Assembly: GCA_025350905.1 (NCBI GenBank)
Contig: JANXWY010000254.1
Span: 365 to 64,364, forward strand
DNA from: Verrucomicrobiota bacterium
GTDB lineage: Bacteria > Verrucomicrobiota > Verrucomicrobiia > Limisphaerales > JADLHS01
Direction: 5' to 3'
DNA length: 64,000 nt
The notes under the pieces are model-generated. The model was not told the origin of the DNA, ran no database searches, and was given only the letters and a program-made list of their open reading frames with translations. A program made the translations under genes and the position numbers. Of the stretch, positions 8,775 through 53,082 are shown piece by piece (within the stretch, counting starts at the first letter, position 1; the number at the start of each line of letters is the position of its first letter).

Positions 8775-10016
8775 CTATTTCAACGCCTGATAATATCCCG
8801 TCTGGAATGCCGCGAAGAAATTGTGTTCGTTGAATGGGAAGTGCTGCGCGAAGGCGATGGCCACGACCCGCTCCTTCGGATCAACCTGGCAATAAGTCGT
8901 CGCCGCGCCGTACCAGCCGAATTGTCCAATCGACGACGGCATTGAGAGTTGACCGAGATCCGTCGTCACTTCCACGCCGAGCCCAAAGCCCTTCTGCCGG
9001 GTCGCCACCTGGTTGTTCGGCAACGTCACCAGATGATTCGCCGTCATCAACTCGACCGTCTTCCGTCCCAGGAGGCGGTGGCCTTCGAGCGAGCCTCCGT
9101 TGCAGAGCATTTGCGCAAACCGGGCGAAATCACCCGCCGTGGAGAAGATTCCCGCGCCGCCCGCTTCAATGCCGCGTCCCGCCTCCGGCCAGGTCTCGAC
9201 GATCGGTTGATCCTCCACGAACTTCCCGTCCGTCCCGTGTTTGTAAGTTTTGGCGAGGCGATTCATCTTTTCCGGCGGCACATCGAAGCCCGTGTCGTTC
9301 ATGCCCAATGGCCGGAAAATCCGTTCCTCCAGAAAGGCGCCGAACGTCTGGCCCGACACACGCTCGATCACTGCGCCCAGCACGTCTTGATTAATGCCAT
9401 AGGTGTAAGCGTCGCCGGGCTGATGCATGAGCGGCACCTGGGCGAGCTTGGTGATGAAGTTGGTCAACCCCGGCCCGCTCCACAGGTTCGCGTCGCGCCA
9501 CATTTTTGCGAGTTCCGCGTTCGTGGTGGAGAAGTCATAGAACAGCCCGCTGGTGTGCGTCATCAGATGTTTGATGGTGATGGGCCGCTTGAGCGGTTCG
9601 AGTTGCGGCACGTGCGCCGTGCCGCCCTTCCAGACCGTCATGTCCTTTAACTCCGGCAGATACTTCGCCACCGGATCATCCAGATTCAACCGCCCCTCCT
9701 CGACCAGCACCAGGGTGGCGACGCTCGTGATCATCTTCGACATTGAATACACTCGGCAAATCGTGTCGCGCTCCATCGGCAACTGCCGCTCCACGTCGCG
9801 ATAACCGTAGGTCTGGAAATCCACGATCTTCCCGTCGCGCGCCAGTAACGTGATGATGCCCGCATGCTGGCCTTCGCCCACGAACCGCTTCACCGTGGCG
9901 TGCAACACCGTGAGCCGCTCCGGCTCAAACCCCGCCGTCTCGGGCGAAGCCGTCGGCAATTGCGCCCGCGCCGAAACCGCCACGAGAAACGTCAGAGAAA
10001 AGAAAATGGATTTCAT
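8775..10016 (-). CDS. serine hydrolase, beta-lactamase/esterase family, secreted
   Basis: Signal peptide MKSIFFSLTFLVAVSARAQ, S-x-x-K motif in YSMSKMITS, and a length of 413 aa typical of the class C-like/EstB family. Confidence 0.8.
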   Translation of the reverse strand: MKSIFFSLTFLVAVSARAQLPTASPETAGFEPERLTVLHATVKRFVGEGQHAGIITLLARDGKIVDFQTYGYRDVERQLPMERDTICRVYSMSKMITSVATLVLVEEGRLNLDDPVAKYLPELKDMTVWKGGTAHVPQLEPLKRPITIKHLMTHTSGLFYDFSTTNAELAKMWRDANLWSGPGLTNFITKLAQVPLMHQPGDAYTYGINQDVLGAVIERVSGQTFGAFLEERIFRPLGMNDTGFDVPPEKMNRLAKTYKHGTDGKFVEDQPIVETWPEAGRGIEAGGAGIFSTAGDFARFAQMLCNGGSLEGHRLLGRKTVELMTANHLVTLPNNQVATRQKGFGLGVEVTTDLGQLSMPSSIGQFGWYGAATTYCQVDPKERVVAIAFAQHFPFNEHNFFAAFQTGYYQALK

Positions 10017-10335
10017 ACGAGCGAGGATTTAAGCGGAAACATTGGTCGTCGTCGCGGAAAATTCGCGAAAAAATCGCGGCGTAAAATGTGCCACGACTGT
10101 TTCAATGGCCCGCTTCATACCCGCTAAGGGCAGAGACCTGGTTTATCGGGAATGCAAATCCATGAGGGCCGACGGGGCGGTTTATCGTGCCGTGATTGGG
10201 TGCGGCGGAACCCCCCCCCGCGGCCTTCCATGGGCGGGATAATTTGGCCTTCCGCCCAAATTGGGCTTGGACCCTTTACTCTGGGCGTTGCCTTGGTCTG
10301 GCATACAGTCACGCGGTCGGCGGCTGGGGGCGACG

Positions 10336-10519
10336 GTTGCTCAATACAGCCACTTCCCGATCTTCCCGTCAGGACTCAATACTACGCCTTGACGGCGAAA
10401 GGCCCAGCACATGTAGCTAATGCTCACGAAGAAGGATGCGGGTAAGCGGTTCGCGGCGCAGATTTTCACGCCCAGCGGCGTCGTCTTGCCGCCGAATCCC
10501 ATCGGGCCGATGCCGAGTT
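10336..10519. repeat. direct repeat copy 1 (184 bp), homologous to 11682-11865
   Basis: Hand alignment with offset 1346 shows 165 of 184 identical positions and no indels. The longest identical block is 36 nt at 10479-10514. Confidence 0.9.
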
Positions 10520-10541
10520 TGGTCGCAGCGGCGGCGTCCAT
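10341..10541 (-). pseudogene. displaced 3' fragment of the class I fumarate hydratase alpha-subunit gene
   Basis: Translation ...LGIGPMGFGGKTTPLGVKICAANRLPASFFVSISYMCWAFRRQGVVLSPDGKIGKWLY matches the C-terminus of the intact gene at 11687-12565 except P/L and F/Y. It has the same stop codon. No upstream gene body is present. Confidence 0.8.
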
Positions 10542-10547
10542 TTACTT

Positions 10548-10871
10548 TTATCGCCTATCCGGATCAAACAATTCCGACCTCATCTGGAGCTGCTTGATGC
10601 TGTTGGTCGCTACGTCCTGCATTCTGATTCCCGCTTCGCCGCAGAGCAGAGCCACATACCAGAGGACATCGGACAGCCTATCCTGGAGCTCACTCGTTTG
10701 AACCGCCGCCAGAGTGAACTTTCCAGATGTCGATGCTGTGCTCAGCAGTGAACTGATCTTCCCAGCTTCTTCCTGCAATCCGGAAACGGGAAGAAGTATT
10801 CGGTCCCGATTGTTGCGCAGCGAGAGCGGCAATTTGGTCGCGGTAATTTGATATTCTTCGAATGTTTTCAT
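10548..10871 (-). CDS. MazG-like all-alpha NTP pyrophosphohydrolase family protein (107 aa)
   Basis: Pattern FEEYQ..A..T....GLQEEAGK......ELQDRLSDVLWYVALLCGEAGI......N..KL..R matches the small MazG/NTP-PPase fold. The first metal motif reads E-A-G-K where E-A-G-E is usual. ATG start with a GGAAG upstream. Confidence 0.6.
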   Translation of the reverse strand: MKTFEEYQITATKLPLSLRNNRDRILLPVSGLQEEAGKISSLLSTASTSGKFTLAAVQTSELQDRLSDVLWYVALLCGEAGIRMQDVATNSIKQLQMRSELFDPDRR

Positions 10872-10916
10872 CGTAATCTTCCGTCGAGCCGTGCGCCCAC
10901 CTAGCCTGCAGATGGT

Positions 10917-11567
10917 TCAGTTCATTGCCCGTTCGGGAATCATTAGACCGGAAGCAGATGCCTTGGATAGCAAGGCATCCAGATTTTCCAGACAGAAGCG
11001 CGACCAGGATTCGTAAGCGCCAGCATCTTTCATAGCTTCATCCACCGGAACGAATTCGGGAGCTACGATCCCACTGCGCCGTCCGACGATGGCCTCGTCT
11101 GTGACAAGCATGACATGCACGACTCCAAAATGAACATAGCCAACGTCTGTGCTGTCATCGTTGATCACCGCAACAGCCGCGTCGTTCGTTTCGTTAATGT
11201 CAACCTCCTCCATCAATTCGCGGCGCATGCCGTCGTGGTATCCGTGCTGGTTAGAAAACAATCCATGATCTTCCTCTGAAATGTGCCCGCCCACTCCTAC
11301 GGAAAACAACCCGTGCAACCTAGTTTCCTGCCCGCCTTTGCCCCGGCGATACCGCAGTAATTTCCCGTTACACAAGATAAGAACGTAGGGAATGAGTTGT
11401 TTGTAGCGCTTGTCGTGTTCGGCCTCGCTTCGGTTGAGATACAGAATATTTGAACTGGCGGTGACGACCGGCAGATATTTATCAACGTCAAGATTCAGTC
11501 CTTGAAACACCCCCGGTTCTTCGAGAAGTTTCCGTTCAAAACAAAGCACTCGTTCTTCAGCAGCCAT
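10917..11567 (-). CDS. Nudix-fold protein, COG4112/YmaB-like (216 aa)
   Basis: YKQLIPYVLI...RLHGLFSVGVGGHISEED...MRRELMEEVDI...INDDSTDVGYVHFGVVHV resembles the YmaB-type predicted MutT-family phosphoesterase. The REUxEE core (RELMEE) is present, but spacing from the upstream G...E is longer than the canonical Nudix box. Confidence 0.6.
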   Translation of the reverse strand: MAAEERVLCFERKLLEEPGVFQGLNLDVDKYLPVVTASSNILYLNRSEAEHDKRYKQLIPYVLILCNGKLLRYRRGKGGQETRLHGLFSVGVGGHISEEDHGLFSNQHGYHDGMRRELMEEVDINETNDAAVAVINDDSTDVGYVHFGVVHVMLVTDEAIVGRRSGIVAPEFVPVDEAMKDAGAYESWSRFCLENLDALLSKASASGLMIPERAMN

Positions 11568-11681
11568 TTGTCGTTTTTCTGTTTATTTGTCCAATGTTGG
11601 AATCCGCCTCCAATCATTGCGAGCAAAAATTATTTTTGTTGTTTGTGCCCTATTCAGAGGTTGTTCACATTCGCGGCAACC

Positions 11682-11865
11682 GTTACTCAATACAGCCACT
11701 TCCCAATCTTCCCGTCAGGACTCAATACTACGCCCTGACGGCGGAAAGCCCAGCACATGTAACTGATGCTTACGAAATACGATGCGGGCAGGCGGTTCGC
11801 CGCGCAAATCTTCACGCCCAGCAACGTCGTCTTGCCGCCGAATCCCATCGGGCCGATGCCAAGTT
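11682..11865. repeat. direct repeat copy 2 (184 bp), forms the functional 3' end of the fumarase alpha gene
   Basis: See copy 1. The 36-nt identical block is at 11825-11860. Confidence 0.9.
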
Positions 11866-12565
11866 CGTTTGCCGTCTTCAGGATGTCCTGCTCCAACTCA
11901 TCGAGTTCGGGAATCGGATTGCGGTCGGGAATCGGTCGCAGAAATTGGGTCTTGCTCAGCTCGTAGCCTGTAGCGCGGTCGCCGCCGATGCACACGCCGA
12001 GGATGCCGGGCCCGCAGCCTTTACCCTGCGCCTGCAAGACCGCGTCCAGGATCGCCTTGCGGCAGCCGTCGAGGTCGCGATTGGCATTGAGCTTTTCGTT
12101 CGGCAGCGAGTATTGCGCGCCGACGTTCTCGCAGCCGCCACCCTTGAGCGCGAGCCGCACGGAAATTTCCGGCGAGCGATGCTGATGAAAATGAAACGCC
12201 GGCGCGCCCGGCCCGACATTCGTGCCGTCGTTCTTCCCCGTGAGCGAATCCACGGAGTTCTGGCGCAGGAAGCCTTTCTTGGTCGCGAGCGTCACCGCCG
12301 CGCGCGCGGTGTCGGCGAAAGTGATCTGGTCGAAGCCGACCGGGCAATCCACATAAAATAAAATGCTCCCCGTGTCCTGGCAGATGGGTTGCGACTTGTT
12401 TTTTGCGAGCGCGATGTTCTGATCAATGATCTTCATCGCGTTCTCGGCAATCGTCCCTTTCTTTTCCTGTTCGAGAGAGTTTAAAATCGCCTGGTGGACG
12501 TCTTCAGGGATTTCCGTGGAAGTGCGGCGAATCAATTCCAGCAGAGAGACGGGTAGTTCAGTCAT
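11687..12565 (-). CDS. Fe-S hydro-lyase alpha subunit (class I fumarate hydratase / L-tartrate dehydratase alpha)
   Basis: 292 aa with QDTGSILFYVDCP, GGGCENVGAQYSLP and IGPMGFGGKTT motifs of the two-subunit class I fumarase/TtdA family. No beta-subunit gene is adjacent. Confidence 0.85.
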   Translation of the reverse strand: MTELPVSLLELIRRTSTEIPEDVHQAILNSLEQEKKGTIAENAMKIIDQNIALAKNKSQPICQDTGSILFYVDCPVGFDQITFADTARAAVTLATKKGFLRQNSVDSLTGKNDGTNVGPGAPAFHFHQHRSPEISVRLALKGGGCENVGAQYSLPNEKLNANRDLDGCRKAILDAVLQAQGKGCGPGILGVCIGGDRATGYELSKTQFLRPIPDRNPIPELDELEQDILKTANELGIGPMGFGGKTTLLGVKICAANRLPASYFVSISYMCWAFRRQGVVLSPDGKIGKWLY

Positions 12566-12608
12566 AAAGCGGGGCCAGCCTACGGTTTTAGCGGGGCAGC
12601 GTCAACGA

Positions 12609-12804
12609 ACTGCGCGGCGAGGGGTGCGACTGGAAGTGGCGGTCCGTGTGGTAGAACGGCTCGCGCTGCGAGCCGTCGTGCCGCGCCCAGCGGCACGTCC
12701 GAGTCACCGCACGTTCCGCCCGCTCGGCGCGGGCGGAGTGTTCGCAGCGCGAACACTCCTACCACCCGGGTTGACCGCCACTTCTGGTCGCACTGCGCGG
12801 CGAG
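12609..12804. mobile_element. MITE-like nested-palindrome element with flanking direct repeats
   Basis: Terminal inverted repeats at 12624-12654 and 12759-12793 pair as 7+12+7 bp. They enclose four perfect hairpins: 12656-12676 (9 bp), 12677-12697 (8 bp), 12716-12736 (8 bp) and 12735-12759 (up to 11 bp). The element is flanked by the direct repeat actgcgcggcgag at 12609-12621 and 12792-12804. Confidence 0.5.
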
Positions 12805-13141
12805 AACCGGTGCGGATTGGCTGCGCAAACAGGCGCTGCCGTTTCGTGACCCAAAGGTGTACGGCAGGAATAGTCGGGCCGGGTGGACTGCCATGCAATC
12901 GAGATTTACGCTCGGAACTTTTCTCCCCGGCCCATTTGGCTCGCTTGTCACCCCGGCCATTGGGATGTCCGCTGAATCAAACGATCGGTCGACAAAATAG
13001 CGATTGGGGAGTTAGCGAAGCAGCGTGGGGTGGTCTAGGAATCCGGCTTGACGCGGGCGGGGTCAATCGACGGCACCAGTCCGAACTGGTTTTCCGCAGT
13101 CTCTTGGCCAAACCCGTTTCAATCGAAACCTGGGCTGCCAC

Positions 13142-13978
13142 TTAGTCCCGTGTCAAAAGTTCGCGATAGGCGCAGGTCAATTTTTCGACCAGCGGCGATT
13201 GCTTCAATGGCGCTCCATCAAGTTCCACCGCTGGCATCACGCCAAAGGTACTCAAGGTCACGAACACCCCTTCGACCTGGACCAATTCCGCCGGCGTCAC
13301 TAGGGATTCCTGGACGGGCACCGCCAGTTCGCGGCAAAGTTCTAGCACCACGGCGCGCGTGACCCCTGCCAGCACCCCGCTGGTCATGGGCGGCGTGCAA
13401 ACCGTACCCGCTTGAATCCAAAACAGATTGCTGCCCGCGCCTTCGACCACGAAACCATCCGTGTTCAACAGCAACGCCTCGTCGGCGCCGACCGCGTCGG
13501 CTTCCGCGCGGGCCAGGATTTGAGTCAGCTTGTTGGCCGTCTTGTATTGCGCGAGCGACTCGCCGGCGGGCAGTCGCCGGGAGCTGGTCTGCAACCGCCA
13601 GCCGCGCGGGAGCAACTCTGGGGACGGAAACGGGTGCAACGACATCACGAGTGTCGGATGATCGGCGCCCTTCGGCGAATAGCCCCGCACGCCCACGCCC
13701 CGCGACAAGGTCAATCGCAACAGCGCCTCCGGCAGCTGATTCAGGGTGATGAGTTCGGCGACGAATTTTCCCAGCGCCTCATCCGCAAAAGGCAGACGGA
13801 GCCCGAGAAATTCCGCCCCGCCGTGGAGTCGTTCCAGGTGTTGTGGCCAGCGGAACGGTTTGCCCCGGCAGATGAGCACGGTTTCAAACAGACCGTCGCC
13901 ATAGAGAAAGCTGCGGTCGAACACGGATACCACCGCGCGATCTTCGGGCACGAACTGGCCGTTGAGAAAAACGAGCAT
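13142..13978 (-). CDS. class IV (fold type IV) aminotransferase, aminodeoxychorismate lyase-like
   Basis: 278 aa with SFLYGDGLFETV and VVEGAGSNLFWI, typical of the PabC/IlvE/Dat fold. I favour PabC-like because of its short length and because pabB is nearby, but this is not proven. Confidence 0.75.
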   Translation of the reverse strand: MLVFLNGQFVPEDRAVVSVFDRSFLYGDGLFETVLICRGKPFRWPQHLERLHGGAEFLGLRLPFADEALGKFVAELITLNQLPEALLRLTLSRGVGVRGYSPKGADHPTLVMSLHPFPSPELLPRGWRLQTSSRRLPAGESLAQYKTANKLTQILARAEADAVGADEALLLNTDGFVVEGAGSNLFWIQAGTVCTPPMTSGVLAGVTRAVVLELCRELAVPVQESLVTPAELVQVEGVFVTLSTFGVMPAVELDGAPLKQSPLVEKLTCAYRELLTRD

Positions 13979-52044: not shown

Positions 52045-53082
52045 TCACTTTTTGAAATGCTCCCTGGGCGCGGCATGAGTAATTAAGCTCACCGGCGCAA
52101 TTCCCTTCGCCCGCTCTGCGCGGGCGTGGTCATCGCAGCGCGATGACCCTACCTCCTCGGTCTGACCGGCGGCACCGAGCGTCGTGCACCTGGCCGCCAC
52201 GAACGCGGCGAACTCGGCCACGTAGGTTTTCCCGGGTTGCATGAAATCGAACTCCTTCGGGGATTGCTGAAAGAACTCGCGGTGGACACGCGTCCAGATC
52301 AACCGGCCATCGGTACCAATGTTGACCTTGGTGATGCCCGAGGCGATCGCGCGCGGCAGTTCACTCTCGGCCACCCCGCTGGCGGTTGCGTCCAGTTTAC
52401 CACCCGCCGCGTTGATCCGTTCGACTTCCCGGACCGGCACGGCCGAGCCACCGTGCAGTACCAACGGAAAACCCGGCAGCCGTTTCTGGATTTCCGCGAG
52501 GCGATCAAAGTGCAATCCCTGTTTGCCAGAAAACTTGTACGCCCCATGACTGGTGCCGATGGCCACCGCGAGACTGTCACAACCGGTGCGTTGGACAAAT
52601 TCCTCCGCCTGCGCCGGGTCGGTCAGGATCGCTTCCTTCGCGTCCACGCTCATTTCGTCCTCGATGCCCCGCAACAAACCCAGTTCGGCTTCCACGGCGA
52701 TGCCGCGGGCGTGCGCCTGCTCCACGACCCGCTTCGTGGTCGCCACGTTTTCTGCAAATGGATGATGCGAGGCATCAATCATCACGGAGTGGTAATCGCC
52801 TGATGCGATCGCCTCCGCGCAACTCGCCTCATCGCCGTGGTCGTGATGACAGGCAAAGACCACGCTGGGATAAATTTCCGCCGCCGCCTCCAACATCGCC
52901 GCCAGCATCCGGGGATGCGCATAACTCCGCATCACGCGGGTGAACTGGACGATAACTGGCGCATGGGCCTGCTCCGCTCCGCGAAATAAACCGTGGACTT
53001 GTTCCATGTTGGACACATTGAAAGCGCCCAGCGCATAGCGGCCATAGGCGGCTTGCAGCAGGTCAAGGGTGGCGGAGCGCAT
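52045..53082 (-). CDS. fba: class II fructose-bisphosphate aldolase family (possible IolJ-type role)
   Basis: GAFNVSNMEQ, ACHHDHGD, IGTSHGAYKF and VLHGGSAVP. The C-terminal ~35 residues run through a palindromic repeat. Confidence 0.85.
   Translation of the reverse strand: MRSATLDLLQAAYGRYALGAFNVSNMEQVHGLFRGAEQAHAPVIVQFTRVMRSYAHPRMLAAMLEAAAEIYPSVVFACHHDHGDEASCAEAIASGDYHSVMIDASHHPFAENVATTKRVVEQAHARGIAVEAELGLLRGIEDEMSVDAKEAILTDPAQAEEFVQRTGCDSLAVAIGTSHGAYKFSGKQGLHFDRLAEIQKRLPGFPLVLHGGSAVPVREVERINAAGGKLDATASGVAESELPRAIASGITKVNIGTDGRLIWTRVHREFFQQSPKEFDFMQPGKTYVAEFAAFVAARCTTLGAAGQTEEVGSSRCDDHARAERAKGIAPVSLITHAAPREHFKK
52128..52148. repeat. 21-bp palindrome ggtcatcgc-agc-gcgatgacc
   Basis: Sister of 51178-51200. 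It lies inside the aldolase C-terminal tail and is translated as SSRCDDHA. Confidence 0.8.

Follow-up and report, generated by a model that had tools for sequence, protein, structure and literature searches.

Organisation of the fumarase alpha locus

The window analysed here is a stretch of 64,000 nucleotides (nt) from a soil Verrucomicrobiota bacterium of the Limisphaerales (assembly GCA_025350905.1, contig JANXWY010000254.1, positions 365 to 64,364), and positions given without a locus name refer to it. On its reverse strand lies a gene for the alpha subunit of a fumarase, the 3' end of which is present twice: once in its proper place and once, detached, on the far side of a small cassette encoding a NUDIX-like and a MazG-like protein. 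The present work deals with this cassette, with the two copies of the gene end and with the site at which the fumarase alpha and beta genes adjoin in related bacteria, where other cassettes are found. The coordinates of the features are collected in Table 1.

From its sequence, the alpha protein is assigned as the alpha subunit of the class I (Fe-S) fumarate hydratase/tartrate dehydratase family, and its gene forms the left conserved flank of the hot spot described below. An exact look-up of the protein matched no record. It was compared with its relatives at 160 loci (80 from genomes and 80 from metagenomes), mostly of Verrucomicrobiota (Limisphaerales, Pedosphaera or "subdivision 3"), with which it shares 80-97% amino-acid identity.

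Positions 10336-10519 and 11682-11865 are identical at 165 of 184 positions with zero indels, and the longest identical run of the pair is 36 nt (10479-10514 and 11825-11860). Both figures had been given in a first-pass annotation made from the sequence alone, and they proved exact on recount. By repeat search, the pair extends to 198 nt at 88% identity, a match which cannot be due to chance; by alignment, the similarity of the two tails runs about 15 nt past the stop codon. The tail repeat has two copies in the whole window, the gene-linked copy 1 and the distal copy 2. Within the 184-nt part, the two amino-acid changes reported earlier (L/P and Y/F) were found again, and two others (N/T and E/K) appear only at the extreme edge of the 198-nt alignment. 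Copy 2 has L>P at a conserved residue; it matches positions 221-268 of the Fumerase profile (5e-14).

Table 1. Features around the fumarase alpha 3' end in the window (-, reverse strand)
Feature	Position	Strand	Evidence
Fumarase alpha gene, 292 aa	11687..12565	-	Pfam Fumerase 4.2e-69; TIGR00722 1.7e-62
Repeat copy 1, gene-linked: last 61 codons, stop codon and about 12-15 nt beyond	11675..11872	-	Repeat search, alignment
Cargo module: conserved upstream region of about 105 nt, NUDIX-like gene, MazG-like gene	10548..11671	-	Alignment with the modules of loci L174, L176 and L179; flank comparison
NUDIX-like protein, 216 aa	10917..11567	-	phrog_8902 1.7e-30; PDB 3E57 1.2e-21
MazG-like protein, 107 aa, putative nucleoside triphosphate (NTP) pyrophosphohydrolase	10548..10871	-	phrog_229 1.5e-6
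Repeat copy 2, distal: detached alpha 3' end within a 66-aa open reading frame (10341-10541)	10329..10526	-	Repeat search, Fumerase profile
Non-coding, lineage-specific flank from copy 2 to the hydrolase gene	10017..10328	.	Only the last 45 nt (10017-10061) common to L094
Beta-lactamase-family serine hydrolase gene, 413 aa	8775..10016	-	Pfam Beta-lactamase 3e-70; synteny

In the Logan assemblies of two sequencing runs, contigs cover the cargo/copy-2 join and the join between copy 2 and the downstream sequence, and they match the window with 100% identity. Since these runs are independent, the structure is not an artefact of one assembly. A further Logan contig (L093, run SRR20627842) ends at position 10340, the last base before the copy-2 stop codon, where no 31-mer is repeated; that sample, which like SRR23617167 holds the strain, may contain another allele of the hot spot.

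The 1.16 kb between the two copies consists of two open reading frames (ORFs) on the same strand and has no other content, in particular no integrase, as had been noted in the first annotation. The same annotation had estimated that this segment was AT-richer than its surroundings (about 50% GC as against more than 60%), and computation gave a GC content of 0.51 for the cargo versus 0.60 and 0.62 for the flanks.

The alpha/beta junction in related bacteria

In the native order, the alpha gene is followed by the gene for the beta subunit (Fumerase_C, 6.5e-57), the ATG of which lies 4-33 nt after the alpha stop codon. The occupancy of this junction was counted in the 134 loci that continue for 700 nt or more downstream of alpha. 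It was empty, with beta starting at most 70 nt after alpha, in 38 of the 134 loci; 71-4324 nt were inserted before beta in 53; gene-end remnants only were in range in 12; and in the other 31, neither beta nor a remnant was in range and ordinary genes came next. When the count is confined to loci with a traceable beta gene or beta remnants, about 60% of the junctions are occupied.

The inserts are mostly small genes on the same strand, encoding PemK/MazF (seven cases), PIN (four), Zeta (three), Rv2179c-like exonuclease (three) and AAA_15/21 plus DUF4276 proteins (three), to which four-helix-bundle, Fic, RelE-like and other proteins are added. Many of these junction cassettes are without any repeat. 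The AAA_15/21 ATPase and DUF4276 pair, seen in L014 (6962-8718), L110 and L155, corresponds to HEC-01 of PADLOC (up to 1e-140). A PIN label was also considered for a common cassette protein of 137-159 aa (METIYIET...) and was abandoned, as neither Pfam nor NCBIfam supported it; the protein was left unannotated. From this survey, the window cassette is probably one occupant of a widespread, integrase-free hot spot for toxin-antitoxin and defence cassettes.

The closest relative found, L094 (97% amino-acid and 91% nucleotide identity in alpha), has a single alpha tail and lacks both the NUDIX and the MazG gene. Relatives with an unoccupied site, for which the first-pass annotation had suggested a comparison, exist in the 38 loci where beta directly follows alpha. 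The site in L094 holds a different insert, an unrelated 831-aa gene (DUF2330 and HEAT repeats) on the other strand. The similarity between the window and L094 breaks at position -55 of alpha and returns 45 nt before the ATG of the hydrolase gene; the content between these two points is wholly different. In L002 and L039, the flanks of the window (alpha and the hydrolase gene) enclose two more distinct inserts, which makes four inserts among these four loci, and in all four the variable interval is bordered on the right by the conserved hydrolase gene. To look for the empty site of the exact strain, the JGI metagenomes were searched with a degenerate DNA pattern of the lineage-specific C-terminus (GVVLSPDGKIGKWLY), without a match.

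The beta gene, which had been described as not adjacent, is absent throughout the window. In L002 (8020-9372), the beta-lactamase-family hydrolase gene has a 100-nt remnant of the beta head fused in frame to its start. In view of this fusion, the hydrolase gene seems once to have been a cassette itself, and the rest of beta would be gone from the locus in the lineage of the window.

Duplicated gene ends

Two kinds of gene-end duplicates were observed at the junction. Those of the alpha tail (window, L008, L009 and L140) always lie downstream of the cargo, and those of the beta head (36 remnants in 28 loci) always upstream of it, so that both subunit genes stay intact. The left ends of the alpha tails differ, at -186 in the window, -166 in L008 and -125 in L009 and L140; the two copies in L008 are 96% identical. 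The detached tails of the window, of L008 (7614-7949) and of L177 (2768-2908) are all contained in intact ORFs with a start codon near the end of the cargo. This may indicate a young age, or translation as mini-proteins.

The beta heads form arrays, with three heads and the intact gene in L099 and further examples in L108, L110, L014 and L120, the cassettes of which lie on the same strand and are set apart by near-identical heads of about 100 nt. In loci with remnants, third-position identity was 0.82 in beta codons 8-33 versus 0.66 elsewhere in the gene; the corresponding values for empty loci were 0.54 and 0.53. As the heads are uniform only where remnants exist, it can be deduced that they travel with the cassettes. 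An intrinsic constraint such as an RNA structure was considered as a cause of this uniformity and rejected, since the empty loci show no excess of synonymous conservation. In addition, heads placed after a cargo have the leader tttaacNagcc-ATG, and empty sites have a GGAG spacer.

The remnants frequently end in the same zone: 26 of the 36 stop within nt 96-108 of beta, beside at least four or five cargos. Most heads with this common boundary occur in two cassette families, one of MazE type with a conserved promoter-like GGACTTGCCAG...GGCGGTAGATT and the unannotated METIYIET family, each of which may go back to a single founder event. The 96-108 end zone is shared by at least three further cargos (in L002, L006 and L113). 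A short GC-rich hairpin, GCGTCG...CGACGC, is present at about nt 80-108 of beta in many loci (e.g. L099 and L108), in the region where most head remnants end. In L113 (about 9580-9720, i.e. +2303 to +2438 from the alpha end), nt 1-101 of the beta head are fused to the last 39 nt of the alpha tail; this chimera may have arisen when repeats of the two kinds recombined.

Origin of the two tails

Between copies 1 and 2, dS was 0.53 and dN/dS 0.04-0.06. Only 2.5 of 18 differences were non-synonymous versus about 62% expected under neutral drift of copy 2 (P ~1e-5). Because the tails differ almost only at synonymous sites, they derive from two functional alleles, in other words they are xenologous. 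The first-pass view that this was coding divergence between two lineages, rather than a decaying duplicate, is thus confirmed by calculation, neutral decay being rejected. At other duplicates, 4.5 synonymous versus 2.5 non-synonymous differences were counted between the tail copies of L008, and four of the five internal differences between the gyrB tails of L176, described below, fall on the third codon position.

The divergence is distributed unequally along the repeat. In the first 124 nt, the identity to L094 is 97.6% for copy 1 and 88.7% for copy 2. In the last 62 nt, the copies differ from each other at 2 positions, and not one of the 160 relatives has the ending which they encode, VVLSPDGKIGKWLY. 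No homologue of the 279-nt flank after copy 2 exists at the 160 loci, and the flanks did not settle which copy is native.

The first annotation had placed a crossover core in the 36-nt identical run, which encodes GIGPMGFGGKTT. In a comparison with 154 relatives, this run ranks first of 840 in conservation among the 36-nt segments of the alpha gene; it is identical in 16 of the relatives, including L094, and has at most two mismatches in 91. The identity of the alpha gene to L094 was 89.7% over nt 1-370, 94.6% over nt 371-705 (to the left of the run), 100% in the run itself, 97.6% over the 84 nt to its right and 66.7% over the last 54 nt. The gene-linked copy is therefore native-like on both sides of the run, and the similarity breaks only near position 11741, about 55 nt before the stop codon; the atypical last 54 nt or so of copy 1 are common to copy 2. 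Judged from these sequence comparisons, the 36-nt run is not an attachment (att) core, because it is simply the most conserved stretch of the gene, and no change from native to element sequence takes place there.

In order to detect recombinases, XerD, lambda Int and gamma-delta resolvase were used as phmmer seeds. With none of the three was a hit better than E = 0.3 obtained, either among the window ORFs or in the 1.46 Mb around the 160 loci, and the larger junction islands, when inspected, contained no recombinase; the tyrosine and serine recombinases for which the first annotation had recommended a search were thus not detected with these seeds. The consensus beta head with its leader did not fold in an attC-like manner better than shuffled sequences (z = +0.42 and +1.58 on the two strands). 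The earlier model, in which a site-specific element had brought in a replacement 3' end, is not sustained by these data, as the gene-linked copy is native-like around the supposed core, no recombinase was detected and the boundaries vary between cassettes. Taken together with the beta-head duplications at the same junction, these observations suggest recombination via homology rather than via a dedicated attachment site.

The cargo module and its occurrence at other sites

The conserved region of about 105 nt upstream of the NUDIX-like gene is likely to be the promoter or leader of the module itself. The conservation among module copies ends at the MazG stop codon. The 216-aa protein scored 2e-3 (18.5 bits, below the 21.1 cut-off) with Pfam NUDIX, and its RELMEEV motif has, judged by eye, a non-canonical spacing. 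Its nearest relative of solved structure is the uncharacterised Thermotoga protein TM1382 (PDB 3E57), and its 4446 homologues bear at JGI the name "predicted NUDIX family phosphoesterase". For the 107-aa protein, the scores with Pfam MazG and MazG-like were about 1e-3, below cut-off; its homologues are named "NTP pyrophosphatase (non-canonical NTP hydrolase)", and it weakly matches PDB 2Q73 and 2Q5Z.

Neither cargo protein matched a PADLOC model at E <= 0.1 or an NCBIfam model, and a single-sequence search found no relatives of the NUDIX-like protein in viral contigs. Rfam gave nothing at E <= 1 over positions 9800-13200. Over positions 10000-12800, a sigma-70 scan found no promoter-like site, and terminator-like sites were at or below the shuffled expectation.

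The module, with the 216-aa NUDIX gene followed by the 107-aa MazG gene, was also found in L174, L176/L177, L179 and L182-L184. In L176 and L177, it directly follows gyrB and is accompanied by a 112-nt direct repeat (94.6%) of the gyrB 3' end. In L176 (3908-5272) and also in L177, an FAD-oxidoreductase gene, a pair formed by a 73-aa and a PIN protein and a gyrA-type gene lie farther downstream of the module. This suggests that gyrB/gyrA is a second inter-subunit hot spot, and the finding of a gyrB-tail duplicate with the same module suggests that the principle is general. The boundaries of the gyrB and alpha copies of the module share no sequence. At the cargo/copy-2 joint of the window, a possible AACTYGG overlap was seen in a single comparison, with L179, and in no other copy of the module.

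In the other, unrelated contexts, the module has no flanking repeats, and the NUDIX gene without MazG occurs in unrelated contexts as well. Since it recurs at unrelated sites, the NUDIX and MazG module is mobile. In L088/L089 (6001-6651), a NUDIX homologue (75% identical, without MazG) lies in a moron-like fashion between the terminase and Mu-type portal genes of a prophage-like region. In L182 (3055-4324) and L184 (2780-4700), the module is placed between two ORFs which resemble an N-terminal and a later portion of a single large gene of methyltransferase type; it may thus interrupt a restriction or BREX-like gene. This resemblance was judged by eye from an NGGLF motif in the second ORF, with neither a Pfam or NCBIfam match nor a flanking repeat.

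As the hot spot is otherwise full of toxin-antitoxin and defence genes and the NUDIX gene is found in a prophage, it is plausible that the two proteins, predicted to be nucleotide pyrophosphohydrolase-like, would act in a nucleotide-based phage-host or addiction-type conflict, in which nucleotides or signals would be depleted or cleansed.

Just upstream of the alpha gene, the window contains a near-perfect palindrome of about 216 nt (12600-12815), which forms a single long hairpin when folded (-132 kcal/mol, z = -6.5). The palindrome is missing from all 160 related loci, positions 12630-12794 being an insertion with respect to L094, and a partial match of 62 nt (81% identity) is located at 52108-52168. 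It may be an element of the MITE (miniature inverted-repeat transposable element) or REP (repetitive extragenic palindrome) type.

Proposed mechanism and alternative explanations

We propose that foreign DNA of related genomes, in which a small accessory module lies beside a piece of a conserved gene, would be taken in by the homologous recombination of the host. Two routes can be considered. A circular or redundant donor carrying an alpha tail and the cargo could integrate by a single crossover in the tail, that is, by a Campbell-type insertion-duplication. Alternatively, a linear donor could be anchored by homology in alpha or beta and be joined illegitimately at its other end, by homology-facilitated illegitimate recombination (HFIR). 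As only 4-33 nt separate alpha and beta, most viable joins would fall inside a gene end, and this end would be duplicated. Such a scheme predicts what was observed for the side of the duplicate, the variable boundaries and the presence of one donor-type copy, because joins that preserve both genes land in the gene ends; likewise, the divergence would be restricted to synonymous sites because one of the two copies comes from the donor and the other from the recipient. Once formed, the direct repeats would permit loss, exchange and stacking of cassettes through further homologous recombination. On the present evidence, it seems rather likely that the junction is a hot spot without an integrase, which receives its cassettes through homologous recombination with foreign DNA and in which the gene end used as homology is duplicated, and we infer a dependence on recombination of the RecA type.

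For the window itself, three sequences of events can be envisaged. With a Campbell-type crossover in the shared last 60 nt or so, copy 1 would be the native end and copy 2 the mosaic tail of the donor, and no further steps would be needed. An HFIR event could also have been followed by gene conversion of the 3' ends. Finally, a pre-formed duplication may have been imported by a double crossover, at -55 of alpha and near the hydrolase gene.

Several observations weigh against uptake by homology. The clustering of the head boundaries at +96 to +108 is tighter than random illegitimate joins predict; it could be due to a specific site or enzyme, to selection against longer beta fragments, to the small hairpin or to a small number of founder events. 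The last 62 nt of the two tails of the window, near-identical and unlike those of all 160 relatives, require an extra step, be it a later gene conversion, a crossover in an already shared segment or the import of a pre-formed duplication. At the cargo/copy-2 joint, a microhomology could not be established across the module copies. Neither a circle nor an empty allele of the exact strain was seen, and all the relatives are metagenome assemblies. Furthermore, the recombinase search covered three seeds and 6-8 kb on each side of the gene, and an enzyme acting in trans may exist.

Such an enzyme is at the centre of two other explanations. The cassette could be the remnant of a site-specific element, or a derivative mobilisable in cis (of the e14/phage 21-icd type or of the cis-mobilisable element (CIME) type), moved by a recombinase encoded elsewhere. 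The 3'-end repeats differing only at synonymous sites would then be comparable to those which e14 leaves at icd/icdC (PMC13626634), and a cargo AT-richer than the host, head remnants ending in a narrow zone beside several cargos and the unusual uniformity of the head core in occupied loci would also be accounted for. This explanation is nevertheless unlikely: no recombinase was found in the cassette, in the window or around the 160 loci, even those with long arrays; the supposed core is the best conserved piece of the gene in the relatives and no change of lineage occurs there; the alpha-tail boundaries vary with the cargo; and the same module sits at gyrB between boundaries without common sequence. 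Moreover, some 135 nt of the distal copy that lie upstream of any possible 3' crossover are foreign, and an att site would have no need of them. Equally improbable in our view is a dedicated cassette system analogous to integrons, in which the gene ends (the beta head of about 100 nt and the alpha tail) would be the sites of an unrecognised enzyme and the host operon would ensure expression. The same-strand arrays with near-identical heads, the narrow right boundary, the common leader of heads after cargo and a toxin-antitoxin- and defence-rich cargo like that of chromosomal integrons all agree with it. However, no candidate enzyme is linked to the arrays, the head lacks an attC-like hairpin, many junction cassettes are free of repeats and most heads with the common boundary belong to two families, each possibly derived from one founder. 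A somewhat broader idea, which we regard as speculative and rather doubtful, is that gene ends (the first 100 nt or so of beta, the last 110-190 nt of alpha, and gyrB) serve as portable recombination sites. Circles would re-enter genomes through them and build integron-like arrays inside essential operons, co-transcribed and hard to delete, by host recombination or by an unrecognised enzyme in trans; the latter would explain the tight boundary at +96 to +108. It is chiefly on account of this boundary that a dedicated mechanism retains some weight.

A local duplication, in tandem or by replication template switching at the insertion, followed by decay of the spare copy, is very unlikely. Template switching can indeed insert DNA between target duplicates, and the duplicates in L008 and L176 look younger. 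The small share of non-synonymous differences in the window, with a like bias in L008 and L176, is opposed to decay, and so is the divergence from the closest relative, 11% for copy 2 as against 2.4% for copy 1. An assembly chimera of two co-occurring strains would be conceivable for a metagenome in which the copies share identical runs of 29-36 nt, where short-k graphs break. It is nonetheless extremely unlikely, as one Logan contig (L001) spans copy 1, the whole cargo and the first 12 nt specific to copy 2, and another (L092) spans copy 2 into the downstream gene, both with 100% identity to the window; in addition, the architecture recurs in independent assemblies, including long-read metagenome-assembled genomes, and with other cargos.

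Significance and relation to known systems

If uptake by homology is the right explanation, accessory genes (MazF, PIN, Zeta, HEC-01, nucleotide hydrolases) would spread without the machinery of mobile elements in a little-studied and mostly uncultured soil phylum. Tightly linked subunit genes would offer two good homology arms together with a strong viability filter, as a consequence of which insertions would leave duplicated gene ends. A small cassette next to a diverged duplicate of a neighbouring gene end could serve as a signature in the search for accessory and defence genes in metagenomes. For annotation, it is a warning that detached tails and heads may not simply be decayed paralogues, and the homology model provides a testable alternative to explanations by a "missing integrase".

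In naturally transformable bacteria, Campbell-type insertion-duplication is a laboratory tool in which one crossover in a cloned homologous segment places an insert between hybrid direct repeats. The window resembles its product, an insert flanked by direct repeats each of which is a donor/recipient hybrid. To our knowledge, a natural and recurrent insertion of this type at a housekeeping junction has not been described.

The hot spot also resembles chromosomal integrons by its small, mostly promoterless and same-strand cassettes, rich in toxin-antitoxin genes, and by a repeated unit of about 100 nt. Unlike in integrons, neither IntI nor attI was found, and the repeat unit is a fragment of a coding gene without attC-like folding.

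The element e14 lies between two diverged 3' ends of a central-metabolism gene, icd and icdC; the gene is intact, the differences are conservative or synonymous and excision gives a chimeric gene (PMC13626634). The window shares with e14 and phage 21-icd an insert between diverged copies of a 3' end and an intact gene. However, e14 is a 15-kb prophage with an integrase and a defined att core, whereas here the insert measures 1.1 kb, no recombinase was found and the boundaries vary.

HFIR has been proposed for arrays of displaced type VI secretion system (T6SS), Rhs and contact-dependent inhibition (CDI) modules which retain fragments of conserved genes (PMC5361080). The junction is similar to these displacement arrays in its anchor in a conserved segment, the displacement of the old sequence, the fragment beside each module, the arrays and the absence of an integrase (PMC5361080). 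In Rhs, CDI and T6SS loci, what varies is the toxin tip of the very gene that provides the anchor; at the fumarase junction, housekeeping subunit genes act as anchors, and unrelated, free-standing cassettes make up the cargo.

Hot spots free of mobile genetic elements (MGEs) and diversified by recombination at the core genes that flank them were described by Oliveira et al. 2017 (PMC5635113). As in these, there is a variable interval between conserved genes, without integrase or transposase and with signatures of recombination in the flanks. A double crossover at an MGE-free hot spot would by itself leave no duplications; here, duplicates of gene ends of 100-200 nt accompany a large share of the events and are now internal repeats. 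The hot spot at the alpha/beta junction combines known components, namely those of MGE-free hot spots, of HFIR displacement arrays and of gene-end duplication of the icd type.

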